This document shows positions 15,194 to 49,222 of a stretch of DNA of 64,000 nucleotides, piece by piece. Made by a program: the position numbers and the translations under genes. The stretch is taken from IMG/VR virus record IMGVR_UViG_3300036939_000039, positions 1 to 64,000 of that record. One strand, 5' to 3'. Under the pieces are notes generated by a model. It searched no databases. It was given only the letters and a program-made list of their open reading frames with translations, and was not told the DNA's origin. How positions within the stretch are numbered: the stretch's first letter is position 1; every line of letters begins with the position of its first letter. The stretch comes from a virus.

Positions 15194-15472
15194 TCAGTGT
15201 CTAATATTAGACTTCCGGCTAAACCGCATCCACCATAGCCAATACCTTAGTTTACGGATTGGATTACGGGCGATCGCGGCAATTTCACTATTGATAGAAT
15301 AAATGCCGTAAATTAGCTTCCCTATTGGGCTACACCAAAACTCCTTGATGTCTCGGCAATTCGTATACAACAGCTTGCTTCCATCCGGATGACTTTGTTT
15401 CCATGCTAAATAGGCGTCTTTCTCCGATAGTTGCAAGCTCCACGTAAAAGCGTCTAGATGTCTCCACCGCAT
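15194..15472 (-). CDS. hypothetical protein
   Basis: 92-aa ORF convergent with the tape measure gene, with abutting stops. The C-terminal SNIRH is encoded by the palindrome. Confidence 0.4.
   Translation of the reverse strand: MRWRHLDAFTWSLQLSEKDAYLAWKQSHPDGSKLLYTNCRDIKEFWCSPIGKLIYGIYSINSEIAAIARNPIRKLRYWLWWMRFSRKSNIRH
15199..15212. repeat. 14-bp palindrome (exact)
   Basis: Lies 5 nt after the tape measure stop, at a convergent junction. Confidence 0.97.
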
Positions 15473-15580
15473 AACATAAATAGTGCTGTTTCTATGAAAT
15501 TATATAGCTTTTTGAATACAATTCTTGCTGATAATTAGCGATAAAATTAAAAAGATTACCCTAGTCAATGAGAGCTAAAT

Positions 15581-15781
15581 ATGCCGATCGCTAAATCAGT
15601 GGGATTGCCCGAAGCTATCCCTTCCACGCCCCCCAACAATGCTTATGTATTGAGGGTTCAATATGAACTCAGTGTTGCCAATAGGACATCTACATACACC
15701 CCTGATAATCTAAAGTCGCCTCATGATCAGGCGCTTCTCGCAGGTCATAAGGCAGCATTACAGGCTTTGTTGCCAGCATAG
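15581..15781 (+). CDS. hypothetical small protein
   Basis: 66-aa ORF followed by a clear intrinsic terminator. Confidence 0.4.
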   Translation: MPIAKSVGLPEAIPSTPPNNAYVLRVQYELSVANRTSTYTPDNLKSPHDQALLAGHKAALQALLPA

Positions 15782-15804
15782 TTTGGATATCACTTACCTG
15801 GGTG

Positions 15805-15837
15805 AACGATGCAGAATTTTATTGCATCGTTTTTTTA
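15805..15837 (+). terminator. Rho-independent terminator
   Basis: 9-bp stem aacgatgca/tgcatcgtt followed by a T-run. Confidence 0.7.
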
Positions 15838-15941
15838 ATGAGCGATCGCCCCCCCCAAAAAAACTTTTAGTTTAATTTATGAATCTTCCGGATCTGAGCT
15901 AACACCCTCGTATAACTAATTGTACAGGTGGAGATTGATTT

Positions 15942-16274
15942 ATGCTTTCTTATTTTGTCTTTAGTTACGGAATAGGCGCGATCGCAACTTACTATTTGAT
16001 GCGTCAAGAGGCGATCAGGAGAAACCCAGCGCTTCTAGAAGCCGCATTCCCTGTTACAACTTCCCTGTGGGAAACAAGCCGGGTTGTTGGTCGCAAAGCA
16101 ATGATCGTAAAAATACAAGAGGCACTTAAAGACGCTGACGTCGAGGCTAGTCAAGAGGCTATTGAGCGAAAGCTTTTCCCCTACTTCGTGATCCTTATTG
16201 AGTTCTGCATCCCTATCTTTGCTTGGTGGTTTCTTCTAGGATTCACTCTTTTTAACTTTTTTAAGGTTAAATAA
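15942..16274 (+). CDS. putative membrane protein
   Basis: 110-aa ORF with GGAG upstream. Hydrophobic N- and C-terminal segments. Confidence 0.5.
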   Translation: MLSYFVFSYGIGAIATYYLMRQEAIRRNPALLEAAFPVTTSLWETSRVVGRKAMIVKIQEALKDADVEASQEAIERKLFPYFVILIEFCIPIFAWWFLLGFTLFNFFKVK

Positions 16275-16310
16275 GCCTTAAGGATTTTTTTTGAACTTTT
16301 CTGCATAATC

Positions 16311-16341
16311 AAGCGATGCAACATCATGTTGCATCGCTTTT
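16311..16341 (+). terminator. Rho-independent terminator
   Basis: 12-bp stem aagcgatgcaac/gttgcatcgctt, 5-nt loop and a TTTT run. Confidence 0.75.
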
Positions 16342-16346
16342 GTAGG

Positions 16347-16736
16347 TTAGTCTAATATTAGATTTCTCAGCATGAATAGATGATCGATCGCCCTTCGTAT
16401 CTCTTTGATCCGATAAGGTTTTGTGATAAAATAGTCCGCACCTAATTGCATCGCTAGCTGTTGGTTGACCATTCCTGCTTGCGCCGTTACATAAGCGAAA
16501 GGAAGATAAGCCTTTCGCGATCGCCTCAGTGTACGAACATGCGCTAGTATTTCCCACCCAGATACTTCATAAAGAACGACATCGCAAAGGATCAGATCAA
16601 AATGCTGATTACTGAGGACAGCGATCGCCTCATTTCCGTTACTCACTCCTAATGCGCTGTATCCTTCTAGCTCCAAGATTTCAATTAAGTTTTCTCTGCA
16701 TTCTTGCTGATCTTCAATGACTAGAATTTGTACCAT
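16347..16736 (-). CDS. single-domain response regulator (CheY-like receiver)
   Basis: Acidic pocket VIEDQ, phospho-acceptor context LILCDVVL, and conserved Lys in FITKP. 129 aa with no output domain. Confidence 0.85.
   Translation of the reverse strand: MVQILVIEDQQECRENLIEILELEGYSALGVSNGNEAIAVLSNQHFDLILCDVVLYEVSGWEILAHVRTLRRSRKAYLPFAYVTAQAGMVNQQLAMQLGADYFITKPYRIKEIRRAIDHLFMLRNLILD
16350..16363. repeat. palindrome variant GTCTAATATTAGAT (1 mismatch)
   Basis: Encodes the receiver C-terminus N-L-I-L-D, and the stop codon abuts it. Convergent junction. Confidence 0.9.
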
Positions 16737-16754
16737 TGGTACTGATTACTAACA

Positions 16755-16997
16755 TCAACTACGACGAAACATTAGTATGTTTCCCTGCTCGACATTTTCA
16801 TTTCTCTCTTCAACCAATGATAACAATCTAACTAAAGATTGCTCAATTCTTATTAGATGCTTGTCTTTTTGTTCTGGTGTCATGCGATCGCCATACTGCC
16901 TCAGTAATTCCACCGAGGATAGTGCAGGCGTAAGAGCATTGCGATAGTAATGGTTGTTTTGCTCAATTGCTGTTGACGGTTCGATTTGACGCAGCAT
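16755..16997 (-). CDS. free-standing DHp/HisKA-like protein (80 aa)
   Basis: NNHYYRNALTPALSSVELL matches the H-box (HELRTPLTSI..ELL). A second helix, KHLIRIEQSLVRLLSLVEE, follows. No ATPase domain. Lies 18 nt upstream of the receiver gene. Confidence 0.6.
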   Translation of the reverse strand: MLRQIEPSTAIEQNNHYYRNALTPALSSVELLRQYGDRMTPEQKDKHLIRIEQSLVRLLSLVEERNENVEQGNILMFRRS

Positions 16998-17052
16998 AGT
17001 CTTATTGCCCCTAGTCTATAATTAATATTAATCAATCGTAACTAAACGTACA

Positions 17053-18423
17053 GTGAAAACTCTCCGTCTAAGGGGCTACTTGAAAGAAAAACTATTGATG
17101 GGAGCGATCGCTTGCGCTGTTGTTGCCGCTGTAGCCAGTCCATTGCTTTTAATTACTCAAGGAAGTATTCACAATACATTGCAAACTATTGAAAAATTGC
17201 ACGTTGACACGATACATCTAGAACGCATTGTCACTGCATTTACTCAGTCGGATATTACCGCTAAAGAATATCTAATTAAAAGCGCACTAGGGAATCTAAG
17301 TGATCGTAGTTACTACATTACCACCTTTAACAAGAACCTGAATAGCGTAGATGTTTATACTAAAGAATTAATTAACAATCGCTACGTTAACAGGTTGGAT
17401 GTTTATGAATTGCAACAAATCAAACAAGAAAAAATTAAGGTATTTCAGGCTACTCTGCAAATTAGATTTTTGACTCAAACCAAAAACATTGCTTTACTCC
17501 TATCACGGGACAGGCAGTTAATTGCCAAGGTGGAACAGGAGGCGAACCAAATTCGTGCCTTAATTCGTCAAAAACAATACAGATCTATTCATTATTTAAA
17601 CTCGCTCTTGGCAAGGCGTCTAGCACTATCAGCCACGTTATCTGGCGCGATCGCCTCCACAGTCCTATTGATCGCATGGAGGAATAAGCAGTTACTCATC
17701 AAGCATCATGCGGATGCTTGCGAGATCAAGGTAATGCAAAATGCAAGAGCGGAACGAGCACGAGTAATAGGTGCGATCGCCCACGATTTACGCCTATGCC
17801 TTCAGCCTATATTAACAGCATCAGAGTTAATCCAACACTATGGTAATACTAGACCTGATCGACTAAAAACATGGGTTGCACAAATCCCAAAAGGCACTAA
17901 CAGGATTAAAGATTTAGCTAATGACTTAGTCCTAGTTTGTCAATCAGAAACCAATCAGATCCATCTAGACATCCAAGAAGTGGACTTACCTGAACTAATC
18001 AACACTATCGCATCTGAGTATAGCCAGTCTACCGAAATACATGAACTGATTGTTAGGGCTTTGGGAGAACAACAGATTATTAGAATTGATCCTGATTTTT
18101 GCGATCGCGCTATTCGCAACTTAATTAGTAATGCGATTAAATATTCCCCAAAGGGAGGAATGATTTATATTTTAGTTGATCTTCAAGCCTGGTCTGTTTC
18201 GGTAGGTGACAAAGGTATAGGAATTCCCGAAAATATAGGCAATACTGTTTTTGAAGCGTTTCAACGTGCTGACAATGTTGGAGCGGTTGAGGGAGTTGGA
18301 CTGGGTTTATCGGTTGTCAAGGCTTGCGCGATCGCTCATGGCGGTAGTGTTTCTGTAGCTAGCCCTGGTTCTATACAACAGATGCAATTCAATACAGTTT
18401 TTACTTTAAAGCTAAAACCCTAA
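17053..18423 (+). CDS. membrane sensor histidine kinase
   Basis: - Two predicted TM segments flanking a loop of about 170 aa.
- H-box AIAHDLRLCLQP, with the His codon at 17782-17784.
- N-box NLISNAIKYSP, G1 DKGIGIP and G2 GVGLGLS.
- An ATG at 17098 is an alternative start. Confidence 0.85.
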   Translation: MKTLRLRGYLKEKLLMGAIACAVVAAVASPLLLITQGSIHNTLQTIEKLHVDTIHLERIVTAFTQSDITAKEYLIKSALGNLSDRSYYITTFNKNLNSVDVYTKELINNRYVNRLDVYELQQIKQEKIKVFQATLQIRFLTQTKNIALLLSRDRQLIAKVEQEANQIRALIRQKQYRSIHYLNSLLARRLALSATLSGAIASTVLLIAWRNKQLLIKHHADACEIKVMQNARAERARVIGAIAHDLRLCLQPILTASELIQHYGNTRPDRLKTWVAQIPKGTNRIKDLANDLVLVCQSETNQIHLDIQEVDLPELINTIASEYSQSTEIHELIVRALGEQQIIRIDPDFCDRAIRNLISNAIKYSPKGGMIYILVDLQAWSVSVGDKGIGIPENIGNTVFEAFQRADNVGAVEGVGLGLSVVKACAIAHGGSVSVASPGSIQQMQFNTVFTLKLKP

Positions 18424-18430
18424 TAAACGA

Positions 18431-18444
18431 GTCTAATATTAGAC
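18431..18444. repeat. 14-bp palindrome (exact)
   Basis: Lies 7 nt after the kinase stop. Contains the GTC TAA that ends the convergent gene 18439..18945. Confidence 0.97.
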
Positions 18445-18945
18445 TTGGGCTTTATCTTCGAGCTTTACAAGGCGCTCCACCAACTGAAGGACTAGACTGG
18501 ACTCCGCTCTTAATGCAATTTCCCTCGCAGCTTGGGCGTCATTTCGTGCGGCTTGGGCGTCCGAGGTAGCGTTATAGGTCACCCCTCTGAGCGTCTCTAC
18601 TTCCAGCGCGATCACCTTCCTCAATGCCTCGACACGCTCACGCTCCTCCTCTAATTGTCGTATAGCATCAGCAACCATCTGCTTAAGGGCTTCTGTCTCT
18701 TCTAGGCGTAGCAATTGCTGATCAAAGCGCTCTAAATTTTTAACAACGCGATCGCCTATTTGAAATAGTGCAGGTACACCCCCGATCGCACCCAACACCA
18801 CCAAAATTAAACTCTGACTGTCTGCCGTTATTGGGGCTAACCCTAAAGCAACGGCAATGACAGCAACAATAATTAGCAAGATTAATGCTTTATTGCCTTT
18901 ACCCCTAAAAGAGAGTTTCATTTTCCGAAATTTGGGTTTTATCAT
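18439..18945 (-). CDS. membrane-anchored coiled-coil protein
   Basis: Two hydrophobic helices followed by a heptad-like acidic/Ala-rich region. Overlaps the FHA gene end. Confidence 0.5.
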   Translation of the reverse strand: MIKPKFRKMKLSFRGKGNKALILLIIVAVIAVALGLAPITADSQSLILVVLGAIGGVPALFQIGDRVVKNLERFDQQLLRLEETEALKQMVADAIRQLEEERERVEALRKVIALEVETLRGVTYNATSDAQAARNDAQAAREIALRAESSLVLQLVERLVKLEDKAQV

Positions 18946-19291
18946 TTTCGCAGATCATGTATTGGAACCATACATTACTATTAGATATTAAAAAAATATC
19001 CCCATCATTTAAGACAAAATTATCACCAATTTCTATGTAAGCATCAACCCCGATTTTTTTTCTAAACTTGTTTAGCGCGACAGGCGATCGCGCCATTGAA
19101 TGAATGGGATTGCCGTTGATGATACTGGTTTTAATTGCCCCTAGACGTCTACTGACATTAGGGGATTTAACTGAGATGTCGTTTGCCTCAACTTTCGTTG
19201 ATCGTCCAATCGTTAAAGTTTTAGGAAATTCAGGGAGAATAAATTCCTCCCTGTCAACCCCGTGATAGTTTACGATTAGCTTGTATGGCAC
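18905..19291 (-). CDS. FHA-domain protein
   Basis: TIGRSTKVEANDISVKSPNVSRRLGAIK and LNDGDIFLI fit the FHA pattern (GR..x..DI.l....VSR.Ha.i ... l.dGD.i). GTG start 7 nt from a palindrome copy. Confidence 0.55.
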   Translation of the reverse strand: MPYKLIVNYHGVDREEFILPEFPKTLTIGRSTKVEANDISVKSPNVSRRLGAIKTSIINGNPIHSMARSPVALNKFRKKIGVDAYIEIGDNFVLNDGDIFLISNSNVWFQYMICENDKTQISENETLF

Positions 19292-19298
19292 AATGTCA

Positions 19299-19312
19299 GT
19301 CTAATATTAGAT
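19299..19312. repeat. palindrome variant GTCTAATATTAGAT (1 mismatch)
   Basis: Lies between the stop of 19312..21081 (1-nt overlap) and the FHA gene start. Confidence 0.9.
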
Positions 19313-21081
19313 CAGATCGAAGCAGGTTCTACTAAGACTATATGTCCTTGCAACCTCATTTTCTGAGTAGAGCCGATACCTGATTCAAGATTGAAAACTC
19401 GCCCTGTTGCAGTAGTGTAATTATTCAATAAGGTTTGCCCTGCTTGAAATGTTACGGTAAAAGGGCTTGCAGTGCCAGCGATTGAGGCAATAACCAAGTT
19501 TCTACCTAGGCTATTGGTTGCCCCATCTTGCAGTAGTAAGCGATCGCCTACATTAAGCCCGGTTGTTGCAGTAACTTGAATTGAATTAGCACCAGCTGAG
19601 GCATTAGCAGCTAATGACAGTATGGTGCCCCTTGCTGTCTCGCGAACGCCATTAACTCGCGTAAAGTCAAGTGTAAATGGCGTCGCATCCGTGCGTGTAT
19701 CAACGGCTTTTGCCATATTAACGATCACAGAAGTAGTAAATTCTGGATCGAAGTCACCGTTGCCAATTCCGTGAGTAATCGTTACCTTTGTGGCATTAGC
19801 TAAACTCGCATAATAGCTGAATGGTGCTACCCGATTACCGCTAAACGAATTCAAGAATGCAGCATACTCAGGATAAAAAATTAAATCCCCCCACGCTGTA
19901 ATTAATACATTTTCTAGATTGATACAGCCAGAAAGATTTGGGAATCCCCCGATCGCCTTAAAGTTTGCTTGATAGAGCGATTGTGGATCATCCGCGAATC
20001 CTAGGCGAAGATTGGTTAAGTTTGTTAAGCCCGACAAATTAAAGTCGGCAGGCAACAGGAGGGGTGCCATGTCATATCCTGCGTCACCACCTGCACTTAC
20101 CTCTTCTTGTAATGCCTCAAAGCTGAGGCTTTGAATTGATACAGGTAAACGCAATTGCGATGTCAATAATATCTGGCGGCGTTCATCAATTTGTCCGTTT
20201 CCGTCTCTCGTATAGATTGCCCCTGTAACGAAAGTCAATTCTCTCAAGTTTGTGATTTGAGAGAAATCCGGAGGGGTGTAACGCTGTGGGGTTCGTGTAA
20301 GAATTGGCAAAATTAACTCACGAATTGCCGTTACTCCATCCGGCACTTCTAACCTGATCAGTCGGGTGTAATCTCGTAAATCAAGAGTTTTGCTGGGGTT
20401 GGTATCCTTGGATGTTGTCCCGTCCGGAAAATGCCAAGTAAAATCCTCTCCACCTGCCACGACTACAGCTAGCCTTGGCTGAATATTGCTGAAATTTAGA
20501 TATCCCTGAATAGGAATATAGACATTTTTGGCTAAGTCTAACGCAGGGGGGGCTTGTGTTACACCAGAAATTAACACATTAGTGATTCTTGCACCGTTGC
20601 GACCTGATAGCAAAATGAAATCTGCGACAGTTGGCAGTGGAGTTGCACTGACAGCTGAGTGCCTTAGCGTTGCCGTTGAACCACTAATTGTATAGAAATT
20701 AATGGTGTCTCCTGCACGCTCAATTCGCATTCTGATGCTTGGGGCATAATCAACTGTCGTATCAACAAATGCATTATTTGCAGACAGTTTTACAAAGATG
20801 CGATTAGTGTCCTGATGCGCTCTTACGCAAAATCCATACGCGATTAAATGCAATGCAGACATCGCACTTTTAACGGCATGAGGATAGACGGCATAAGTAA
20901 ACCCAGCCGCTGCACTTAATGCATCTGCTGTGTTTTGATTAAAGCCAAACTCAATATAGCCATTACCGACCAACTGTTGTAAGGTCGAATATCCTCTAGT
21001 GTTTGCAGCAAAACTGGAAGATACATCTTGTAAGAAAATCGTGTTAGCTGGGTTGCCTGTTCTAGTTGCGGTTAAGCTCAT
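19312..21081 (-). CDS. putative tail fibre / receptor-binding protein with lectin-like N-terminus and LRR-like centre
   Basis: 589 aa. The N-terminal 170 aa look like a concanavalin/LamG-type jelly roll. The central LxxLxLxxN-type repeats include ITNLRELTF, LTNLTNLRLG and CINLENVLI. Confidence 0.45.
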   Translation of the reverse strand: MSLTATRTGNPANTIFLQDVSSSFAANTRGYSTLQQLVGNGYIEFGFNQNTADALSAAAGFTYAVYPHAVKSAMSALHLIAYGFCVRAHQDTNRIFVKLSANNAFVDTTVDYAPSIRMRIERAGDTINFYTISGSTATLRHSAVSATPLPTVADFILLSGRNGARITNVLISGVTQAPPALDLAKNVYIPIQGYLNFSNIQPRLAVVVAGGEDFTWHFPDGTTSKDTNPSKTLDLRDYTRLIRLEVPDGVTAIRELILPILTRTPQRYTPPDFSQITNLRELTFVTGAIYTRDGNGQIDERRQILLTSQLRLPVSIQSLSFEALQEEVSAGGDAGYDMAPLLLPADFNLSGLTNLTNLRLGFADDPQSLYQANFKAIGGFPNLSGCINLENVLITAWGDLIFYPEYAAFLNSFSGNRVAPFSYYASLANATKVTITHGIGNGDFDPEFTTSVIVNMAKAVDTRTDATPFTLDFTRVNGVRETARGTILSLAANASAGANSIQVTATTGLNVGDRLLLQDGATNSLGRNLVIASIAGTASPFTVTFQAGQTLLNNYTTATGRVFNLESGIGSTQKMRLQGHIVLVEPASI

Positions 21082-22697
21082 TAGAAATCCTCAAAAAATA
21101 AGCTGACAATTGTATTAATCGTAGGGATAATGACCGGGGGTGCTCCGTTAGCATACTCAATGATCATTTCTTCTACGTTTGTTGCCAAGCCAGCTTGGGT
21201 TGCTGAACTGCTGTAACCAGGAACTAAGGGCTGGCAGACAAGGTATAGGCGTGATTGTGCCAATACTGCTAGAAAATCAGATGACCCTTCAATCTGAAAG
21301 GGGTTGTTAAATTGTGCCCCTAAAAACGATCGCACCCGACTAAATACGCTTCGCAAATCGTAGAGAGCATGACCTACAACGCTAAAACTTCCAATAACAA
21401 CTCCCCCACTAATTTCTGCATTGCAACTATACAAACCCAGGAAATAGTCCGAGTAGTAATTAGAGGTAATTAGCGACTTTTGTTGTGGGTCGGTGTCCGG
21501 ATTAAGAACCAGGGAAAGCTCGACAGGATATTGACTGTAAGCCGATAGTTGAACTGGGCAAATAATAGATGACATTGGACGATCGCCTATCAATGCTTTT
21601 GCTTCAATCAAAGCGATCGCTGTTTTGTCGACATCACGCCGCAACTCCCCCGATATCGAAAAAGACCCGTTAGCGCGAGGGGAATACCCATCCTGGCTAT
21701 CACCACTTAAGGTTACAGATACGCCATATTTGCACAACAATTGGTCAGTGGACGGAGCAACTAGCCCAATATTACTAAATGTAATGGGTAAACCTTCTTC
21801 CATCACAGCGCGCAAAAAGCTGGAGTCAGCCGATCCGATGGTTGCAAACTTAATCCATCGAAAGATACCCATATTAGCGGCATCTTCGCAGTAAACGTAG
21901 AAGTCCGCTATCCCTCCATCACTTGCAGAGATTTGAAAGCCCCACATAGTGACATTTGTTAAGCTGACAAACGCCTTGCTTGCCCCCGTTCCGTCTAGTG
22001 GATCAGCCCATTGCGATCGCGGCAAAACCTGATTCTTGACAACCCCTGCCTCTACGTAACGCCGCACAATCCTAAGCTTATCGCCCTGACCGTCTCCGAT
22101 CGACTCCATATAGTAACCTGTGTTACTACTAAATGCCCCCCACTGCTTGATAAAGCTATCGCCTTGACCAATTGCCTTAACGCCCATCGTGAACATTACA
22201 GGCGATCCAGGTGGCACACGAAAGCGCCTCTTACTAGCCAGAAGTGATTGACGTGTACCGTAAAAATTTGCTGGGTTCGCAGGTAGTAGTAACTCAATCC
22301 CAGATTGAGCAAAGTAAACCGTAGCGATGTCTGGGGTTGTTTCGTAGGAAACAATTAGATTCTCAATGTTTGTTGCGATACCAGGATGTATCGCAGGCAC
22401 CCTTTCAGTTAATGTTCCTGCTAGCGAATTTGAGACATCCCAGTCCTGTAAATCTAACCCATAGCGGTTGACGTCTGCGTAAAGTAGCTTCCGATTTTTG
22501 GTGTTGTTACTACCAAATTGATCAAAAAGAAGATCTTTGTTCTGAACAATTACTTCCTTAGTGGCAACTTTTCCGGAAATGTCTCCGGTTAGCGTAACCG
22601 GGTAACTCTCTTTTAAGGAATGAACACCTCTTTCATCAGGGCGATCGCCCAAGTTGGCAGGAAAATAACCTTTGCGAATTTCTACTATTTCAGTCAT
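21081..22697 (-). CDS. tail-associated structural protein (paralogue A)
   Basis: 538 aa, collinear blocks shared with 22767..24494. Stop and start are coupled (TAATG) with the next gene. Confidence 0.5.
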   Translation of the reverse strand: MTEIVEIRKGYFPANLGDRPDERGVHSLKESYPVTLTGDISGKVATKEVIVQNKDLLFDQFGSNNTKNRKLLYADVNRYGLDLQDWDVSNSLAGTLTERVPAIHPGIATNIENLIVSYETTPDIATVYFAQSGIELLLPANPANFYGTRQSLLASKRRFRVPPGSPVMFTMGVKAIGQGDSFIKQWGAFSSNTGYYMESIGDGQGDKLRIVRRYVEAGVVKNQVLPRSQWADPLDGTGASKAFVSLTNVTMWGFQISASDGGIADFYVYCEDAANMGIFRWIKFATIGSADSSFLRAVMEEGLPITFSNIGLVAPSTDQLLCKYGVSVTLSGDSQDGYSPRANGSFSISGELRRDVDKTAIALIEAKALIGDRPMSSIICPVQLSAYSQYPVELSLVLNPDTDPQQKSLITSNYYSDYFLGLYSCNAEISGGVVIGSFSVVGHALYDLRSVFSRVRSFLGAQFNNPFQIEGSSDFLAVLAQSRLYLVCQPLVPGYSSSATQAGLATNVEEMIIEYANGAPPVIIPTINTIVSLFFEDF

Positions 22698-22705
22698 TCT
22701 TGTTA

Positions 22706-22719
22706 GTCTAATATTAGAC
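22706..22719. repeat. 14-bp palindrome (exact)
   Basis: Lies 8 nt upstream of the ATG at 22697 (minus strand). Confidence 0.97.
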
Positions 22720-22766
22720 CGATACTTTCTGTCCTATGACGTGCACTTCAATGTTTCGTCCGCTAC

Positions 22767-24494
22767 TTACTGTTCACCCCATGTCAATGAGCAAGAAACG
22801 TTAGCAGATCCGGCAACTAATGTACGCGCAATAACTACCAAGACATCACCCGGATCTGTTGGAGCAACTTGTTCGGCACGTCCTAGTTGCTCCCTCTTTG
22901 GGCTAAATAAAGGCTGCAAATCGATAAACGCTGATCCGTTACCTGCACAGTAGTAAGCACCGAATAGTTTCCCAGCATTACTATCAGCAGGTCTCCCCCC
23001 TGCTCCTGCATAAGTCCCTGTAAACGCAGAAGTGGCGGCAACTACTTTTAAGTGTTCAGCATCACCCGTTAATGCGTACCAAGTTGCAACGTTAGGTGAA
23101 CCAGCACCCTGTAAACTTGTTGGGTTTTTCAGTAAGTACACCTCAACCGGAATACCCCCGCTAACCGCAATTGACAAAGACAAGGGGAATACTCGTGACT
23201 TTTGTGGGCGTCGCTGTGTGCTTACTGGAAGGTTGCGATTAAAAACAAATGATTTGACCGCGATCGCCAAAATAGGCTGATAAGCAGCGTTGGCAACGGC
23301 AACAATAGGCGATCCGTAGCTGCCGATGACCATTGGATCAGGATCACCTCCTGGTATCCAGCAGCTGACGCCGTAACGTCGCATGAATGCAGCTGAAGAC
23401 ACTGATTCAGCTAGGCGATCGCGCCGATGGGCTACTTGGAAGGTGATCGGTAGATTGGGCGATTCCATTGTGGGGACAGGCAAAGTATCCCCATGCCGTA
23501 TTTCATGAGCCTGTACCCACCGTGTTGACCCCAGTGATGGAGAGTTTTGATCGGGGCAGTAAACATGCCCGGAACCACCAGACGCACCATACCAGCTAAA
23601 CCGAGTCAGAAACATAATGATGTTGCTGACTTCTGAATTATTCAATCCTGAAACAGGTTGCAGTAAAGACAAGAAACGAGCCGAAGTTGCACGGGTTGAA
23701 ACGCCCGACGGATTGCCGTCATTAACCCGCCCAGTCAGCTTATCTCGATTAAATTGACTGTAATGAATAATTTCTTCAAAAGTGTCAACGTCAATCAACT
23801 TAGTGTCGGCTCCCGTTGCTCCCACTAGATAGGTTGGGCGAAACATTGATGAATCCCCCAGTGCCGCGCCATTCACGTGTTGCCCATCGCTTGGATCGAC
23901 TGAACCAACAACAGTCCCTGTCAACCCCTCCAGTGCCGTCCCTTCAATGGCGCTTGAACGCCTGAACATATAAAGATCAGATTCCCAGTGCCCAAGACCT
24001 GCATTCCAGCGAGTTAATAACCTCCACCCGTATCCATCACGCCGCGTAAAGTTCCCCCATTGGTACATGACAGCACTTGCCGCCGCGCCCTTATTGACTT
24101 GAATTGCATAGGAGGTGTCTATCTCCTTACCTGGCTGATATTGATAAGCGTACTTTGTCTGTTTAACAACAGCACTGTCATTTTGGCTTAACCGAAATTC
24201 CGCTGCTGAAATCTCTGGCACATAAGTTACCGTACCTTTGCCAGTATCGGTATCGATAAACCAAATATTTGGATCAATGCCTGTGCTCAGAACGTTCTGT
24301 AAATAGTAATATGGTTCCTGATTGACACTAAACCCAAACTGATCGGTTTGCAGTTCAGAGATGGGTTTATTGGTATCATAGACCGGGATCTGAGTTTGAT
24401 CGGGGGGCAAAACAACAGGAATACTTTCCTGCGCGATCGCTTGTCCTTTCTTGACAGGCTCGTTATAGGCAATTACAACAACTGGATCAACCAT
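22767..24494 (-). CDS. tail-associated structural protein (paralogue B)
   Basis: 575 aa. Shared blocks with paralogue A are DQFG, YQPGKE/RVPPGS, QWGNF/QWGAF, LPITF and RYGVS/KYGVS. Confidence 0.5.
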   Translation of the reverse strand: MVDPVVVIAYNEPVKKGQAIAQESIPVVLPPDQTQIPVYDTNKPISELQTDQFGFSVNQEPYYYLQNVLSTGIDPNIWFIDTDTGKGTVTYVPEISAAEFRLSQNDSAVVKQTKYAYQYQPGKEIDTSYAIQVNKGAAASAVMYQWGNFTRRDGYGWRLLTRWNAGLGHWESDLYMFRRSSAIEGTALEGLTGTVVGSVDPSDGQHVNGAALGDSSMFRPTYLVGATGADTKLIDVDTFEEIIHYSQFNRDKLTGRVNDGNPSGVSTRATSARFLSLLQPVSGLNNSEVSNIIMFLTRFSWYGASGGSGHVYCPDQNSPSLGSTRWVQAHEIRHGDTLPVPTMESPNLPITFQVAHRRDRLAESVSSAAFMRRYGVSCWIPGGDPDPMVIGSYGSPIVAVANAAYQPILAIAVKSFVFNRNLPVSTQRRPQKSRVFPLSLSIAVSGGIPVEVYLLKNPTSLQGAGSPNVATWYALTGDAEHLKVVAATSAFTGTYAGAGGRPADSNAGKLFGAYYCAGNGSAFIDLQPLFSPKREQLGRAEQVAPTDPGDVLVVIARTLVAGSANVSCSLTWGEQ

Positions 24495-24503
24495 TTTTGA
24501 GAA

Positions 24504-24517
24504 GTCTAATATTAGAC
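24504..24517. repeat. 14-bp palindrome (exact)
   Basis: Lies 9 nt upstream of the ATG at 24494 (minus strand). Confidence 0.97.
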
Positions 24518-24535
24518 TCGGTAAGTTTAAGTAAA

Positions 24536-25648
24536 TTAGATGAAGTCTGAAACATACCCATCAAAGTTAATATTCCCTTTCATGATTGGGATTTTTTCCC
24601 CATCCGCTAAACGGACGATTAGATCATAGGAATATTCCTTGAGATACAAGCCCCTGGTATCGTCAGCTGTAATACCAATCGTTAAGGTATTGAATGCGAC
24701 ACTTCCAAAGAAGGTGATCGCGCCTATTGGCAATTCCTCGATATCTACGGGAGTAACCGAAATCTCAACACTACCCTTGGGAGCTGTATCAGTGACATCA
24801 ACAGCGGTCAGGTATTCCCAGCCTTGATCGGTGCGACGGCTAAAATGTAAAGTTGTGCCTACGGGAATGGCAGCCGGAATAGCAGGTACAACTAGCTGAG
24901 TCATTCCCGCGAGTGAGGCATCAGTCAGGATAACAGGGAACGCATCAATATTAGCAATTGAGTTTGCCGCTATTTCTGCTGCCAGTGGTTGAACGGTAAG
25001 CGATCGCGCTGCCAGGGGCGCATCTTCGCTCAAGACAGCTACTAGTGTGTCGCTAGTTCCATCCGAGAAAACCAAAGTATCTCCCTTCAAGAATTTGCGC
25101 GGCAATGACTGCACTAGTATTGTTTCGGCACCTATTAATGCGGTAGATTCAACGGCAATAAAAGTAGGCGTAAAGCTAGGAAGGACAGTAAAGCTAGCCC
25201 AGCTTTTGTAACGAAAAAACACCCTTCCTTTAGAGACATCTCTGGTAGCCAGCCCTTCAACTAATACTGAAGTCGCTGTTACACTGAGAATCTTGAACAG
25301 ATTAATGCCAGACCCTTCGAGAGAGATGAAATCTCCTTCAGAAATTGGCAATGACGCCAATTTCTTGATGTCTCGATCAGCTTTGCATTCGTTGGAGCAA
25401 TCCAACTTTTCAAATTCAAGCTTGATGATTGAAGTACCAGCAACAGTTGACCCCAGTACATTTGTGATTTGCCGCACGTCTCCATTAGGCGGGCGGACTT
25501 CCATCGCAAAGCTTGCACCTCGAAAGTCGATGGGATAATCTGCGACCAATAAAGAAAAAGTAAAGTCAGCCCCTTTGTAGAAGCATAAATTTTGAACATG
25601 CGGCTTGAAAACAGGCTCAAAACATAAAGGTAATGATCGGGTTGCCAT
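24536..25648 (-). CDS. putative tail / baseplate structural protein
   Basis: 370 aa, beta-rich, in the fibre operon. Start and stop are coupled with the upstream gene. Confidence 0.4.
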   Translation of the reverse strand: MATRSLPLCFEPVFKPHVQNLCFYKGADFTFSLLVADYPIDFRGASFAMEVRPPNGDVRQITNVLGSTVAGTSIIKLEFEKLDCSNECKADRDIKKLASLPISEGDFISLEGSGINLFKILSVTATSVLVEGLATRDVSKGRVFFRYKSWASFTVLPSFTPTFIAVESTALIGAETILVQSLPRKFLKGDTLVFSDGTSDTLVAVLSEDAPLAARSLTVQPLAAEIAANSIANIDAFPVILTDASLAGMTQLVVPAIPAAIPVGTTLHFSRRTDQGWEYLTAVDVTDTAPKGSVEISVTPVDIEELPIGAITFFGSVAFNTLTIGITADDTRGLYLKEYSYDLIVRLADGEKIPIMKGNINFDGYVSDFI

Positions 25649-26208
25649 TATTTACTGATGGGTTTATTGATACGTTTAGCCATTTCTAGCAAGCGCTTTG
25701 TTTTTCGATCTAGTGGTGGACGTTGTTCTGTGACCTCCTCATGTCGCAATAATTCCTGAAACTCATCTTCCTCGATGATTACAAATTCTTCTTTTGCCCA
25801 GTAAGTAGGAAATGGATCTTTAGGGATTGGATCGGGCGGTGGAATTTGCTTTAGTCGTTCAACGTGGTTAGCGTCAAGAGGAAGGTTTTGAGGTGCTACT
25901 TGCGCGATCGCAGGTAATCTCTTAGGTGCTTTTCGCTCAAAAAGTGATCGCCACTCCAGTCTTTCTCCCTGAATCTTGAACTTGAATTCAGGTATTGTTC
26001 CTACCGGGCGATCGCTTAGTAATTGGGCGGTATAAATTCCTGGCTTGATTTCTGTCTCGATAAAATACCCATTAAAGACAGAAATTTCTATGGGTTCTGA
26101 TTGAGCATCATTAGCTATTAGCCGCAACCTTCCGGTTAGTGCGTCGTCATTGCATATTATTTGACCTGTCAGGATTGTCATGTAAAAATTTTCCTGCAAT
26201 AGTTTCAT
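25648..26208 (-). CDS. hypothetical structural protein with prealbumin-like N-terminal region
   Basis: First gene of the minus-strand fibre block. GQIICNDDALTGRL...IKPGIYTAQL resembles carboxypeptidase-regulatory-like folds. An alternative ATG lies at 26181. Confidence 0.4.
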   Translation of the reverse strand: MKLLQENFYMTILTGQIICNDDALTGRLRLIANDAQSEPIEISVFNGYFIETEIKPGIYTAQLLSDRPVGTIPEFKFKIQGERLEWRSLFERKAPKRLPAIAQVAPQNLPLDANHVERLKQIPPPDPIPKDPFPTYWAKEEFVIIEEDEFQELLRHEEVTEQRPPLDRKTKRLLEMAKRINKPISK

Positions 26209-26318
26209 ACTATATACCTTGCGGCTTTAACTGTCTTGAAAAACCTTAGTTAGCTATTTAAAACAATCACAAATCCTGATATCCTGGTTAAAATATCCTT
26301 CTTTAATATCAGTTAATT

Positions 26319-26603
26319 ATGTCAGCCATTATCTCTAAGCGTGAAAAGGAAATTAACGCAGCGATCGCGGCTGAGTTTCGAGTATTAAGAGCACGAAGAG
26401 GTTGGGGCAATAAAGCGATCGCGCAAATCTTTAAAAAACACGGGTTAGAGGTCAATGACTTGCAACGCATTCAAGCACTGGCAACGGGAAAACGGCGCTT
26501 GTATGGAGCAGAATTGATTATTTTATTGGCGTATGGGCTAAATGTTAGTGATATAGTGGCAGACGTCAAGAAAATCAACAGCAAAGATAATCTGCTGATG
26601 TGA
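26319..26603 (+). CDS. XRE/Cro-type helix-turn-helix regulator
   Basis: 94 aa. LRARRGWGNKAIAQIF...IQALATGKRRLYGAELIILLAYGLNVS fits the HTH_XRE layout. Divergent from the fibre operon. Confidence 0.55.
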   Translation: MSAIISKREKEINAAIAAEFRVLRARRGWGNKAIAQIFKKHGLEVNDLQRIQALATGKRRLYGAELIILLAYGLNVSDIVADVKKINSKDNLLM

Positions 26604-26607
26604 TTGA

Positions 26608-26621
26608 GTCTAATATTAGAC
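26608..26621. repeat. 14-bp palindrome (exact)
   Basis: Lies 4 nt after the XRE stop and 17 nt upstream of the J-like ATG, with AGGA in between. Confidence 0.97.
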
Positions 26622-26638
26622 AGCGCTAGGACAAAAAA

Positions 26639-29600: not shown

Positions 29601-29905
29601 TTGACAGCAGCTATACAGCTTCCGTTTATCATATTGATGGCACTAACAATCAATCAAATCTTCCAGTTAATACGGTTACAAAAAACGGTGAAGTCTGGCT
29701 GTTAATATCTGAATTGGATGATCCTATAATGCCTAATGGACAAAACAGAACGGGGGACTATATAGTCATCGGCAAAAACTCGCAACTCAGGAGGGTTTTT
29801 AGAATAGCTGGCATTGAGATTCAATCAGAATTTAAATGCTCTGTTGCTGCTACTCGCTGGGATGAGCGGATGCTAGGGAATGAGGGATTAGTGACGATTG
29901 TCTAA
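26639..29905 (+). CDS. lambda gpJ-like tail tip / host specificity protein
   Basis: 1088 aa with collinear blocks resembling lambda J as recalled:
- YPKLSLLGLKAIASERLQS vs YPNTALVGVQVDSEQFGS
- RIGQIFLQSSRFQDRGINFSTGLQGLGARPGSLI vs RAGLWLIKTELLETQTVDFSVGAEGLRHVPGDVI. Confidence 0.75.
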   Translation: MIDERSLLVHLSAYHGIELEPGELRSLLAYIQEVAKTERDHRLEPNEVQNLPVAVAVVGGALGGFFAPALGVSTIAGILIGASLFSKLFDLFNRPKQEEEPTRAYGFDSVVNLVPLSGAIPMIWCNREINPNGGVRASGFLIHARVETFKGSQRYYGLQAFGYGRVGEIDESELLIDDQPLDNFLAGDIEQYVRLGTADQTIINEFPFYSQAISPNANTSLGVDLRGEAKRINSIINNISVNGSVTNGYLASVNPTRFVKNAGTIATFVSEEQIAQDDGWVQGQVLSGDRVIRLGMSINNAFRFYFQTLENGHYVIIENDVIAFTSGTPPTPATYVVNDVFRVEYQSGTLLYRKNGNVVFTSTLLPAYPAKLQCQIIDGAISAFDVQVYDLRLADVTIDEFGNVEPVTGSTTLSVDEDDIEKFTPSDRYRVNGVNFSIVDKNENILTVDVPITVGGNDEIYAVYTAKFENTQNVSQVDFNFIFSLWGRDKDGKLKRHAIAFDIYIKPTTSTEFIRLYRIFVANKNQGEIRRGLKIKNLPFGKYQFEFRSLERVSGDLPILRLGDGGALTSTPSGITIGVNSIILETEYAEPPDDDDANDDLDFDDKEQVSSQNGAPGRITSINEITLPIDLGHPQVSRYPKLSLLGLKAIASERLQSTPTPSALFRKGRIGWALLAAGEAAIPSLDNQLVSFAEDFVALGIQPGNRIRNLDKKTDEVIASVTMSALSTIASMQWEKGDRYLIYVEESLCYFPDVLADAVRSPDGGLHELVDADQVIDYVSFLKSKRFCKANNFYWDGTLAETSNIVDWAEREAPLSLLFPSIIDGRLALVPEQYEPPIATFNDAAMESYSETLLQPKEYNQVNVRYKDGSDTRFKEKTVTIATIEAFNGLEPIYEAPTIDAISSVTNFAQAERIGQIFLQSSRFQDRGINFSTGLQGLGARPGSLIVALSTITQIYLEKSGFVVAVQLYDSVTRSQVIKLSQPIEIGFDSSYTASVYHIDGTNNQSNLPVNTVTKNGEVWLLISELDDPIMPNGQNRTGDYIVIGKNSQLRRVFRIAGIEIQSEFKCSVAATRWDERMLGNEGLVTIV

Positions 29906-29917
29906 TATTAGACAATC
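29896..29917. repeat. 22-bp perfect palindrome GATTGTCTAATATTAGACAATC (14-mer core at 29900-29913)
   Basis: Contains the stop codons of both convergent genes, J-like (+) and K-like (-). Confidence 0.97.
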
Positions 29918-30294
29918 ACCTCCACTGCATGTAGTCGCCAAATCCCGTGAATCTTGCTTTGCAATTGTTCCATAGGTAGCCATTGAGCACCCCTAGAATA
30001 CGACATAAACACAATGCCATTGTCTAGGATAGTGCCCAGCGCGATCGCCTTCCCTAGCCCCAATGCAACCAAATCTCCGTCCTTGGCATTGTTAACTCTG
30101 GCTGCGTAAAACTCTAGCATTTGTATTACAAAATCATCAGGTAATGTCACCTCATCGTACCTTTGATACAACCATCCTAGATTAGGCAATGCAGAAAAAT
30201 TACATTGCTGTCTAACCCAATAAGCTAAGCTGAAACAATCCCAGATTTCCCATTGATAGGGGCTAGCTGGAAGCTGGAAGTTAAGTGTATTCAT
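29908..30294 (-). CDS. NlpC/P60-like tail protein (lambda gpK-like C-terminal half)
   Basis: WDCFSLAYWV (catalytic Cys context) and DGDLVALG. ATGA overlap with the L-like gene. Confidence 0.5.
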   Translation of the reverse strand: MNTLNFQLPASPYQWEIWDCFSLAYWVRQQCNFSALPNLGWLYQRYDEVTLPDDFVIQMLEFYAARVNNAKDGDLVALGLGKAIALGTILDNGIVFMSYSRGAQWLPMEQLQSKIHGIWRLHAVEVIV

Positions 30295-30818
30295 GATAGT
30301 TGCAAAGCCGATGAACTTCTGGGAACTTGCACTAGACCCGGTAAATCAGGGTTGCCGTTACCTGTACCAGTGCGCCAATGTACGGAAGGGATAGAACCCC
30401 TACCCGTAATGCTTAATGGTGACTGCATGTTGATTCTGATCGATGCTCCATCATACTGAATTGGATCGTCAGATAGCTGGAATCGCCAGACTTGAGGGAT
30501 GTCACTAGCCAGGTAAGGCAAATAGACGAGATTGACGTTAAGAAGCGATCGCCTCAGCCCGTCGTTGTCCTCTATGAATTGCCTGTACGTTTTATCATTT
30601 GGTAACTCTAGCGTTGCATTGCTAGAATTCGGCTCTAAACTTCGTGGTGGAGGGGTGAACTCTCCCATGGCAAGGTAATTGTATATCTTGCCGTCCCCGT
30701 CCCATTCAATGGGTTCAACACTAAAGTTTTGATGCAGAAAAATTAGACCATTCTGTAATTGCAATCTTGCTAATAATCCAATCCGAACTGATGCTAAATC
30801 ATAAGATTGAATTGTCAA
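30291..30818 (-). CDS. lambda gpL-like minor tail protein
   Basis: IFLHQNFSVEPIEWDGDGKIYNYLAMGEF...SSNATLELPN parallels the gpL stretch YFFCNEQ..GEPVTWQGRQYQPYPIQGSGFE...TRPTLTVSN. Confidence 0.55.
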   Translation of the reverse strand: MTIQSYDLASVRIGLLARLQLQNGLIFLHQNFSVEPIEWDGDGKIYNYLAMGEFTPPPRSLEPNSSNATLELPNDKTYRQFIEDNDGLRRSLLNVNLVYLPYLASDIPQVWRFQLSDDPIQYDGASIRINMQSPLSITGRGSIPSVHWRTGTGNGNPDLPGLVQVPRSSSALQLS

Positions 30819-31264
30819 GCGATCGCTCCTTTTAACTCAACATTTACATTATAAATACCACACCCTTTCAGCACCATAATTAATTCTCCATCTACAACGA
30901 TCTCCCTGTCTTGTTGACTGACAACTACCTCCATCGATAAAGATTCTTGATTGAATCGCCAGTATGCATTACTGGTATTTGCAATTCTTTTAACTATTTC
31001 ATCGGGATGATAGAAAATGCTATTTGGCAACAGAAAAGCGTCACCATACATGCCCCCTACTAAATCCCAAAAATACCAAATCGCCCTCAAGTTATCGGGT
31101 TGAATTGCCTGGTACTCTAGTGTCATCATTTGCCCTATGGGCAAGAATTGAAACCTTACATTCTGGGTGTTTCCATCTCTAAATTCAGAGCGTGAACCCT
31201 TGTATGATGCTGTCATAATAGGGCTGATTTTATTGGGCTTAGGAGTGGACGGATAGACTAACAT
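30815..31264 (-). CDS. lambda gpM-like minor tail protein
   Basis: SEFRDGNTQ vs gpM RFGDGYSQ, and AIWYFWDLVGGMYGDAFLLP vs LESFLEEHGGWKSFLWTP. First gene of an M-L-K operon. Confidence 0.55.
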   Translation of the reverse strand: MLVYPSTPKPNKISPIMTASYKGSRSEFRDGNTQNVRFQFLPIGQMMTLEYQAIQPDNLRAIWYFWDLVGGMYGDAFLLPNSIFYHPDEIVKRIANTSNAYWRFNQESLSMEVVVSQQDREIVVDGELIMVLKGCGIYNVNVELKGAIA

Positions 31265-31271
31265 TTATAAT

Positions 31272-31285
31272 GTCTAATATTGGAC
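31272..31285. repeat. palindrome variant GTCTAATATTGGAC (1 mismatch)
   Basis: The only notable element in the 36-nt divergent gap. Lies 7 nt from the M-like ATG and 15 nt from the ATG at 31301. Confidence 0.9.
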
Positions 31286-32736: not shown

Positions 32737-32750
32737 GTCTAATATTAGAC
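32737..32750. repeat. 14-bp palindrome (exact)
   Basis: Lies 8 nt after the stop at 32728 and 8 nt upstream of a TTGACT -35 box. Confidence 0.97.
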
Positions 32751-32758
32751 ATCAAGCC

Positions 32759-32787
32759 TTGACTTATAGGTGTTAGGGGGCTATGGT
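32759..32787 (+). promoter_or_regulatory. sigma70-type promoter
   Basis: TTGACT (32759-32764), 17-nt spacer containing GGTGTTAG, then TATGGT (32782-32787). Confidence 0.5.
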
Positions 32788-32818
32788 AAATACAGTCCTA
32801 AGTAAGTTGTAGGCAAAT

Positions 32819-33157
32819 ATGTCCACGAATTGGATCGACGTAAGCGAACAATTACCATTAAGAGAAAACGAAGTATGCTATCTAGTGGCATACCTTAATC
32901 CTTTTTTTGGAAAGCTTACCCTTGAAATTACACTAGCAAGTTTTGACAGTCCAAATGATTATGAAAATCCTGAAGATGCGGAGGGGTGGAAGGATTGCTG
33001 CACGGGCAAAAAGATACTTGTAACTCATTGGCAGAAATTACCTAATCTGCCTCACAGCGAATTTGACGGAATCGATCAACTAAAGTTTAAAAATCAATTT
33101 GGCACTATTCGCCCAAAACTAGGATGTGTGACCAGGGTTGACACCCCCGCGATTTAA
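32819..33157 (+). CDS. DUF551-like protein
   Basis: WIDVSEQLP ... VTHWQKLPNLP matches the typical DUF551 pattern (WI.v.d.lP ... vthWmplP). Confidence 0.5.
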   Translation: MSTNWIDVSEQLPLRENEVCYLVAYLNPFFGKLTLEITLASFDSPNDYENPEDAEGWKDCCTGKKILVTHWQKLPNLPHSEFDGIDQLKFKNQFGTIRPKLGCVTRVDTPAI

Positions 33158-33180
33158 AATACGCAGGATCTACTTCTATC

Positions 33181-33218
33181 ATTGTAACCCCACATCCTTT
33201 TGGGCGTGGGGTTACAAT
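33181..33218 (+). terminator. 13-bp perfect hairpin, possible terminator
   Basis: attgtaaccccac / gtggggttacaat with a 12-nt loop. Only a weak U-tract. Confidence 0.45.
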
Positions 33219-33235
33219 ATTTCTATAGTAGTCCA

Positions 33236-33249
33236 GTCTAATATTAGAC
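33236..33249. repeat. 14-bp palindrome (exact)
   Basis: Part of a roughly 50-bp unit repeated from 32731 (palindrome plus promoter). Confidence 0.97.
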
Positions 33250-33257
33250 ATCAAGTC

Positions 33258-33287
33258 TTGACTTGTGGGTGTTAGGTAAGCTATGCT
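33258..33287 (+). promoter_or_regulatory. sigma70-type promoter
   Basis: TTGACT, 18-nt spacer containing GGTGTTAG, then TATGCT. Confidence 0.45.
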
Positions 33288-33336
33288 GAATGCAGCCTTA
33301 ATTGAATCATCGTTAATCTTAGGGACGTTCAGAAGC

Positions 33337-34155: not shown

Positions 34156-34176
34156 ATTAATTGCATTACATAAACG

Positions 34177-34209
34177 AACCCCGACTTATGCGTGTAAGTC
34201 GGGGTTTTT
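34177..34209 (+). terminator. Rho-independent terminator
   Basis: aaccccgactta / taagtcggggtt stem, 6-nt loop, TTTTT. Confidence 0.8.
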
Positions 34210-34243
34210 GTATCTCTCTGTTAACAGGTTGAATTTTTGATGC

Positions 34244-34279
34244 TTCCTGGGAGAAAAAACCCCTGTATTTACCACTATA
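34244..34279 (-). terminator. Rho-independent terminator for the methyltransferase operon
   Basis: cccctgtattta / taaatacagggg stem preceded by an A-run on the plus strand, which reads as a U-tract on the minus strand. Confidence 0.75.
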
Positions 34280-49217: not shown

Positions 49218-49222
49218 AAATC

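Follow-up and report, generated by a model that had tools for sequence, protein, structure and literature searches.

The DNA analysed here, called the window throughout, is a stretch of 64,000 nucleotides (nt) comprising positions 1 to 64,000 of the IMG/VR virus record IMGVR_UViG_3300036939_000039, and our subjects are the tail gene module that it carries and the 14-bp palindrome GTCTAATATTAGAC that recurs at the boundaries of its genes. As the likely overall explanation of what follows, we regard the window as carrying the tail module, fixed and non-collinear in its architecture, of an uncultured siphovirus-like cyanophage. An initial annotation had described the module as a lambda-like array broken by two nested inversions, with a copy of the palindrome at each of the four inversion endpoints. 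The genes, open reading frames (ORFs) and palindrome copies in question are these:

3968-15193, + strand: tape measure protein (TMP) gene, 3741 amino acids, matching phrog_2335 (E 5e-33)
7486, 9253 and 11400: palindrome copies in-frame within the TMP gene, translated as SNIG, SNIR and LILD
15199-15212: exact palindrome, 6 nt past the TMP stop codon; outer-left endpoint of the proposed inversions
15213-19291, mixed strands: accessory island, with palindrome copies at 16350, 18431 and 19299
16347-16736, - strand: stand-alone receiver-domain protein, 129 amino acids (Pfam Response_reg)
17053-18423, + strand: histidine-kinase-like protein, 456 amino acids (Pfam HATPase_c)
19312-26208, - strand: fibre/baseplate-like block of five genes (589, 538, 575, 370 and 186 amino acids) with phrog_1645 matches
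22706 and 24504: palindrome copies in gaps of the fibre block
26319-26603, + strand: 94-amino-acid ORF, divergent from the fibre block and moving with it in relatives
26608-26621: exact palindrome, 18 nt before the J start; proposed inner-left endpoint; GTCCAATATTAGAC in a relative of 92% nucleotide identity
26639-29905, + strand: gene for a J-like central tail fibre/tip attachment protein, 1088 amino acids (phrog_31; Mic1 gp29+gp28)
29900-29913: palindrome containing both the J and the K stop codons; proposed inner-right endpoint; symmetric variant ATCTAATATTAGAT in the same relative
29908-30294, - strand: putative K-like NlpC/P60-type gene, 128 amino acids (weak Pfam match; hhalign to Mic1 gp30)
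30291-30818, - strand: L-like tail tip/hub gene, 175 amino acids (hhalign to Mic1 gp31; Foldseek)
30815-31264, - strand: M-like gene in distal-tail position, 149 amino acids (hhalign to Mic1 gp32)
31272-31285: palindrome variant GTCTAATATTGGAC in a 36-nt divergent gap, immediately after TATAAT at 31266-31271; proposed outer-right endpoint
31301 (ATG) or 31280 (TTG) to 32728, + strand: gene of 475 or 482 amino acids, divergent from M, with a weak phrog_9232 match

This map agrees with the order given in the initial annotation (TMP on the plus strand, an accessory island, fibre genes on the minus strand, J on the plus strand, K, L and M on the minus strand, then plus-strand genes again) and with the tight gap reported there, the M start at 31264 and the ATG at 31301 being 36 nt apart. 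The K-, L- and M-like ORFs overlap one another (29908-31264). A collinear, one-strand order directly after TMP was not found: J lies on the plus strand, K, L and M lie on the minus strand, and some 11 kb of island and antisense fibre genes separates TMP from J. An assembly artefact or chimera is ruled out as the source of this order, since three other contigs, one each from an NCBI metagenome, Logan and IMG/VR, have the same order; the exact J protein of the window also occurs on the first two of these, with identical neighbours. The NCBI contig (67,622 bp) and the Logan contig show a circular-mapping genome of about 67.6 kb, of which the window lacks about 3.6 kb. Within TMP there is an embedded metallopeptidase domain at residues ~2711-2909 (phrog_28672 match, 2717-2909), and the fibre block matches the virion structural protein family phrog_1645 with E values of 1.8e-23 and 1.5e-13, together with a weak match to an LtfC-like domain. 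The length of TMP, 3741 amino acids, implies a very long tail; its homologue in a 107-kb relative described below has 3073.

The identities of the tail-tip genes were examined by profile and structure comparison. The J-like protein matches phrog_31, "central tail fiber J" (E 6.6e-16), and weakly PF24801, and it aligns with gp29+gp28 of Microcystis phage Mic1, the sole GenBank phage relative of this ORF, at 29% identity over 92% of its length (E 1e-93). A tblastn comparison of all window ORFs with Mic1 gave matches for J, the C-terminus of TMP and a methylase only, so that profiles were needed for K, L and M, for which single-sequence searches gave no useful matches. An exhaustive profile search with the L-like protein recovered 24 remote homologues, and hhalign comparison of the resulting profile with Mic1 gp31 ("tail L") gave a probability of 99.4% (E 1.9e-21); its AlphaFold model (pLDDT 75) was matched by Foldseek to the T1 tail-tip protein 9l9p_J (E 4e-6), to lambda gpL (8iyk_L, E 8.4e-6, TM 0.59) and to the T5 hub protein. 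The M-like profile aligned with Mic1 gp32, which occupies the M position (93.9%, E 1.5e-7); no direct match to lambda gpM was obtained, and the structure model was unusable (pLDDT 35). For the K-like protein, Pfam gave DUF6950 (E 5e-4) and NlpC/P60 (E 0.24), both under the gathering score, and hhalign against the NlpC/P60 protein gp30 of Mic1 gave a probability of 77.7% (E 1.9e-5), the cysteine motif DCF(S/G)L being common to both. These profile comparisons support the predicted M, L, K and J identities of the initial annotation, strongly for J and L and moderately for M; for K the support is weak. No gpI homologue was recognised in the tail module. Two candidate identities for the 482-amino-acid gene were rejected: BLASTP found nothing to make it a homologue of Mic1 gp34, and its phrog portal match is weak (E 5e-5). 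A 623-amino-acid gene adjoining the terminase comes before it as the likelier putative portal.

Set beside the tail-tip module of lambda (gpH-gpM-gpL-gpK-gpI-gpJ) and of Mic1 (gp35-gp28), the module here has homologues of J, L, M and, weakly, K in addition to a giant TMP, and its M, L and K genes are contiguous, overlapping and in canonical relative order. Unlike in lambda and Mic1, J lies on the strand opposite to M-L-K and converges on K, and the M-L-K-J set stands apart from TMP. The departure from a collinear order that the initial annotation had pointed out is thereby confirmed against Mic1, whose genes run collinearly from TMP (gp35) through gp34, gp33, gp32, gp31, gp30 (the NlpC/P60 endopeptidase) and gp29/28 to gp27-25, and against two distant loci with L homologues, one of them in a cyanobacterial chromosome, where L and a large J-like ORF share a strand. 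At locus L110 (AP018178.1, 654147-670656, in a 9.9-Mb chromosome record) a distant L-like homologue is accompanied by a 935-amino-acid ORF on the same strand and by several Thy1 genes; this locus is probably a prophage, or a prophage remnant, related to this phage group.

Comparison with closer relatives indicates when the order arose. All fetched pieces of the IMG/VR record 3300035686_000004, whose nucleotide identity to the window is about 92%, align collinearly with it. This record carries orthologous palindromes, and over some 35 shared copies, at 8-10% nucleotide divergence, no inversion separates the two. Three further relatives are free of the palindrome: IMGVR_UViG_3300018719_000003 (107 kb), 3300041964_000077 and 3300049933_000097. 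The 107-kb contig nevertheless has J on the plus strand, K, L and M on the minus strand and the 482-amino-acid gene on the plus strand, with extra genes inserted at the junctions; its TMP is on the same strand as J and its fibre genes are on the opposite one. On two further contigs (L101/L105 and L103) the fibre block is antisense to TMP and the tail genes; the fetched parts of these contigs yielded neither J nor K/L/M. The 482-amino-acid gene is divergent from M in relatives too, with an additional 535-amino-acid ORF in between in L005. Taken together, the window shares its orientation with two further assemblies of this phage, with the 92%-identity relative and with the palindrome-free 107-kb relative, and no inversion isomer, of the kind the initial annotation envisaged, occurs in any assembly or contig of the lineage examined. 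Because the same strand pattern is found without the palindrome, the J flip predates the spread of the palindrome, and the copies cannot be read as its inversion joints. The scrambled tail order is old and fixed; it is inherited and does not switch.

The fibre block has a history of its own. A unit of constant internal orientation, made up of the receiver (-), an 80-amino-acid ORF (-), the kinase (+), further genes, the five fibre genes (-) and the 94-amino-acid ORF (+), is present in all three palindrome-free relatives, where it lies upstream of the 623-amino-acid gene and the head-tail genes and not between TMP and J. Since the unit is placed elsewhere with its orientation kept, these lineages differ by translocation and not by inversion. 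The two nested inversions do formally restore the order TMP-M-L-K-J-fibres, and this much of the earlier proposal stands as geometry; as an account of how the fibre block came to its place it is not supported, the block differing between lineages by translocation. The receiver and kinase pair adjoins the fibre block, and the linkage of pair and fibres is kept at about 40% identity in the 107-kb relative (L104 17018-19060). The history that we propose would begin with a collinear ancestral order (TMP, M, L, K, J and downstream tail genes), as in Mic1. In the ancestor of the whole clade J would have become inverted relative to M-L-K, and so come to converge on K, and a rearrangement would have left the fibre genes antisense to TMP; the palindrome would have spread afterwards, in the sub-lineage of the window only.

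All four endpoints named in the initial annotation do carry the palindrome, in exact form at 15199, 26608 and 29900 and with one mismatch, as GTCTAATATTGGAC, at 31272. They are four of many sites. Nine copies lie within 15199-31285, and in the 64 kb GTCTAATATTAGAC has 39 matches at up to two mismatches, against 0.20 expected from shuffles; 23 copies are exact and 35 have at most one mismatch, spanning 733-63617. About 30 copies lie between genes or overlap gene ends and 5 of the 35 are deep in ORFs, in a window of which 88% is coding. A copy is present at 29 of the 57 gene junctions (28 of the 42 with a gap of at least 10 nt), and the probability that four random junctions would all carry one is 0.06, rising to about 0.2 when the choice is confined to junctions with a real gap. 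With copies at about half of the junctions, their presence at the four endpoints is unremarkable and uninformative, and any rearrangement that preserved genes would have copies near its ends, because copies stand at most gene boundaries. The base on either side of the palindrome is preferentially A or T (W), and the flanks show no other conservation.

Read in one of its frames, either strand of the palindrome gives GTC TAA. As the initial annotation stated, the stops of J (29903-29905) and K (29908-29910) fall inside a single copy (29900-29913); it had taken junctions this tight for recombination joints, but a palindrome with TAA on both strands suffices to explain how closely J and K abut. 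We also considered the palindrome as a marker of strand switches and rejected this, copies being present at 6 of 10 strand-switch junctions versus 23 of 47 co-directional ones, which is no meaningful enrichment. Of the convergent junctions 3 of 5 carry an exact copy, and of the divergent ones 0 of 5. The commonest variant, GTCTAATATTGGAC, has 7 copies on the plus strand (7486, 31272, 35340, 37263, 46421, 52509 and 56512). Its reverse complement, GTCCAATATTAGAC, has 0 copies in the window whatever the direction of the genes, which amounts to a strand bias; GTCCAATATTAGAC is the form present in the close relative at the orthologue of 26608.

Between the window and the 92%-identity relative 31 of 35 orthologous copies are identical, with a divergence of about 1% inside the 14-mers versus about 10% in their flanks. 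The palindrome is thus kept nearly invariant, by selection or by homogenisation. Its distribution is narrow. When IMG/VR was scanned with a 16-mer, multiple copies were found, besides the window, only in 3300035686_000004, and no match at up to two mismatches was present in about 110 kb fetched from the three palindrome-free relatives, which have 50-80% protein identity; nor did those three contain any other iterated palindrome besides HIP1. A scan of genome contigs for a host-derived repeat gave, among the matches listed, scattered single chance matches, L155 excepted, and a literature search found no paper containing the 14-mer. L155 is a GC-rich contig of an unrelated metagenome-assembled genome (JBHHXT010000383.1, 3616-3690) in which TGTCTAATATTAGACA occurs twice, with a degenerate third copy, at 24-nt spacing; these copies adjoin an ORF that looks integrase-like by eye. 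The cyanobacterium Plectonema radiosum NIES-515 (L180 1111-1140) has a perfect palindrome of 30 bp that shares this core and has 93% identity to 60252-60281 of the window.

Two gains of the palindrome could be followed in alignments. Inside TMP a patch of about 17 nt has been replaced with no change of length, giving KSNIRQ in the window and KKDAQS in the relative, and before the TMP start the gain is accompanied by 30-50 nt of extra intergenic DNA. Taken together, the palindrome is a constrained, lineage-specific intergenic repeat that is later than, and separate from, the change of gene order.

As to known systems, the palindrome probably resembles most closely the dyad repeats of Cluster O mycobacteriophages, and by this analogy it is a putative protein-binding site. 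The Cluster O repeat is a 17-bp dyad-symmetric sequence, 5'-TGTTCGGNNNCCGAACA, with 34 copies in Corndog, at conserved positions and absent elsewhere, with occasional insertions or deletions between copies; its function is unexplained, its authors suspecting a dimeric binding protein and doubting a simple transcriptional role (PMC4351075). In both systems a siphovirus genome of about 70 kb carries more than 30 near-invariant copies of a short palindrome, at the same positions in close relatives and not in other phages or hosts among the matches listed. The element here differs in being an uninterrupted, perfect 14-bp palindrome, AT-rich and with stop codons on both strands, and in being intergenic in about 30 of 35 copies versus 14 of 34; the host phylum differs too, and there is no sequence similarity.

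By this reading the palindrome would be the site for a dimeric DNA-binding protein and would punctuate transcription across the genome as an operator or "stoperator" does; a few copies would double as the tips of terminator hairpins, and the TAA that it contains can abut or supply stop codons. Among the functions open to such an element, we would put a protein-binding punctuation or operator element at somewhat short of an even chance. Several copies are placed suggestively. Those at 32737 and 33236 precede TTGACT-N17/18-TATGNT by 9 nt, and others stand just after -10-like hexamers, directly after TATAAT at 31272 and 7 nt after TAAAAT at 49204 and 50437. The last two belong to a repeat of about 60 nt, at 49180-49245 and 50412-50478, in which TAAAAT is followed by the variant ATCTAATATTAGAC and then by AAATCATG; one copy lies directly before the M15 peptidase gene (50456) and the other before an unannotated ATG at 49223, and the whole looks like a duplicated promoter/operator/start unit. 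By annotation, candidate DNA-binding proteins of the phage are a Bro-N protein (54634-55146), an HTH_36 protein (52570-53988) and a 283-amino-acid IF2_N-like protein (43912-44763). A bolder version, which we consider rather unlikely, makes the palindrome a young, still propagating punctuation element that colonised about two thirds of the intergenic gaps after the split from the palindrome-free relatives, entering genes by patch replacement and intergenic regions with 30-50-nt insertions, and that is read by a dedicated protein, a counterpart of HIP1/REP-type palindromes.

Several points weigh against a reading that joins an old, fixed tail order to a later protein-binding palindrome. The outgroups that give the J flip its direction are few (Mic1 and the two distant loci), about 64 kb of the 107-kb relative was covered, so that a few copies elsewhere in it are possible, and consensus assemblies could hide minority inversion isomers. 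The positions of the palindrome copies relative to starts, stops and promoter-like hexamers vary. The preference of exact copies for convergent over divergent junctions would also fit a role at 3' ends or in termination, and the symmetry of two double variants (ATCTAATATTAGAT in the relative and GTCCAATATTGGAC at 54647) is likewise what a stem-pairing model predicts. Finally, copies can join in recombination, as is seen in an insertion or deletion bounded by two of them.

That case concerns a duplicated unit of about 55 nt, composed of the palindrome, ATCAAG and TTGACT-N17/18-TATGNT, whose copies at 32737-32790 and 33236-33290 bracket a 112-amino-acid DUF551 gene. The 92%-identity relative has a single such unit (L004 16788-16845) and no DUF551 gene, the segment concerned being ~32751-33235 in the window. 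Judged by this alignment, the DUF551 segment is an insertion or deletion between repeat copies. It can be cited for seeing the palindrome as a hotspot of recombination or gene flux, which would supply short homology for ERF-type annealing, or a nuclease target, and move cassettes, and which would have aided lineage-specific changes, such as the arrival of the fibre block beside J, and not the old J flip; we hold this to be improbable. In its favour, a 289-amino-acid gene has copies on either side of it in L098 and another location in the palindrome-free relatives, a copy stands at the breakpoint between the 94-amino-acid ORF and J, the phage encodes ERF and two T5orf172 (GIY-YIG-like) proteins, and insertions and deletions between such repeats have been published for the Cluster O phages (PMC4351075). 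What flanks the DUF551 gene, however, is the 55-nt combination of palindrome and promoter-like unit and not the 14-mer alone, and other differences from the close relative, namely a 151-amino-acid ORF separating K from L in that relative and 220 bp lying between L and M, have no copies at their edges. With half of the junctions carrying copies, coincidence is to be expected, and a passive site needs no strong constraint on all 14 positions. When 29908-30294 is set against L004 13270-14124 of the close relative, the K-like gene is 74% identical to its orthologue, versus 94-97% for its neighbours; with the extra 151-amino-acid ORF this marks a patch of the tail tip that is locally mosaic or hypervariable.

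Still less probable, in our view, is an element that acts through nucleic-acid structure, either as an RNA hairpin for 3'-end formation or processing or as a cruciform or hairpin in the DNA that terminates or insulates at the ends of genes. Many copies do lie 4-13 nt past a stop codon or overlap one, and besides the convergent preference and the symmetric double variants already mentioned, terminator-like hairpins of -20 to -22 kcal/mol have the copies at 55177 and 60260 at their tips, one hairpin being followed by a U-tract; a search for orthologues of these two sites that lack the palindrome turned up the close relative only. One convergent junction alone lacks a copy, and classic bidirectional terminators take its place: at 34176-34290 two strong intrinsic terminators face each other. 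The core hairpin itself, however, folds at only -2.9 kcal/mol, most copies have neither an extended stem nor a T-tract, and several stand before starts, at promoter-like hexamers. Single-base variants show no bias towards G-U pairing on the transcribed (sense) strand (about 3 for and 6 against), which argues against a purely RNA-level role.

The exchange between the copies at 15199 and 31272 and at 26608 and 29900 put forward in the initial annotation, giving two nested and possibly still reversible inversions, is highly improbable: it reproduces the TMP-M-L-K-J-fibres order of Mic1, finds a copy at each of its four junctions and the J/K joint within one of them, and can appeal to the reported recombination of Cluster O repeat copies (PMC4351075), but it is opposed by the abundance of copies at other junctions, by the shared configuration of the palindrome-free relatives, by the translocated fibre block and by collinearity over some 35 shared copies, the phage encodes no site-specific recombinase, and if about 40 non-directional sites were active the genome would suffer deletions or be scrambled. 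Indeed, a Pfam search of every called gene of the 67.6-kb genome gave no match to an integrase, resolvase, recombinase or invertase, the only recombination protein found being ERF (PF04404), and this tells against site-specific exchange between copies. The resemblance to the Mu G/Gin, P1 C/Cin and Hin family lies in a tail-fibre-related gene flanked by inverted copies of a short sequence. Unlike those systems, the phage has no serine invertase gene, and in place of one pair of ~26-bp inverted sites there are about 40 perfect 14-bp palindromes (39 matches genome-wide); the whole J gene, and not alternative C-terminal exons, would be flipped, and its orientation is fixed in all assemblies and relatives.

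Dispersed repressor operators, such as the stoperators of Cluster A mycobacteriophages, the inverted repeats of Streptomyces phage phiC31 and the C1 operators of P1, comprise tens of short sites spread over the genome, mostly intergenic and conserved among relatives, and some overlap promoters; both stoperators and C1 operators lack symmetry, and their orientation follows that of transcription. The sites here are likewise numbered in tens, short, mostly intergenic and conserved, and some lie at promoter-like hexamers. They differ in that the palindrome is symmetric and that in this phage neither a repressor nor an integrase was recognised, nor any other mark of lysogeny. With REP and HIP1 the element has in common that it is a highly iterated short palindrome, REPs being extragenic and favouring the 3' ends of genes. 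REPs are imperfect, 20-40 bp long, headed by GTAG or CGTC and mobilised by RAYT, whereas the palindrome here is perfect and of 14 bp, and Pfam scans of the phage genes gave no match to Y1_Tnp, the RAYT transposase; HIP1 differs in being an octamer found mostly inside genes.

Regarding the rest of the phage, the HIP1 octamer GCGATCGC has 151 copies in the window, or 2.36 per kb, two to three times the density in the palindrome-free relatives (0.8-1.15 per kb), and this richness indicates a HIP1-rich cyanobacterial host. Pfam scans of all genes identified an ERF single-strand annealing protein (PF04404), a Dam-type methylase, a C5 methylase, a DEAD-box helicase, two T5orf172 proteins, a Bro-N protein, an HTH_36 protein and an M15 peptidase; the two T5orf172/MUG113 (GIY-YIG-like) proteins, the Bro-N protein and the ERF protein are encoded at 37220-37732, 47488-48303, 54634-55146 and 57002-58012. 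No integrase, repressor or partition gene was recognised in the phage gene annotations.

These results mean that the window holds no programmable or palindrome-driven inversion of tail genes and that the module should not be counted among candidate host-range switches. Its rearrangement is an ordinary but clear case of modular reshuffling among related phages, and what its genes are can now be tied to Mic1, a phage whose structure has been studied, as well as to lambda and T1. The palindrome is of more interest than the tail order: it is an intergenic, constrained and lineage-specific element with about 40 sites in a cyanophage genome of about 68 kb. The palindrome-free relatives at 50-80% protein identity and the palindrome-bearing relative at 92% nucleotide identity constitute a natural before-and-after comparison for the spread of such a repeat and for what may read it; if the palindrome is indeed a punctuation element, the mechanism by which it spread would be open to study.

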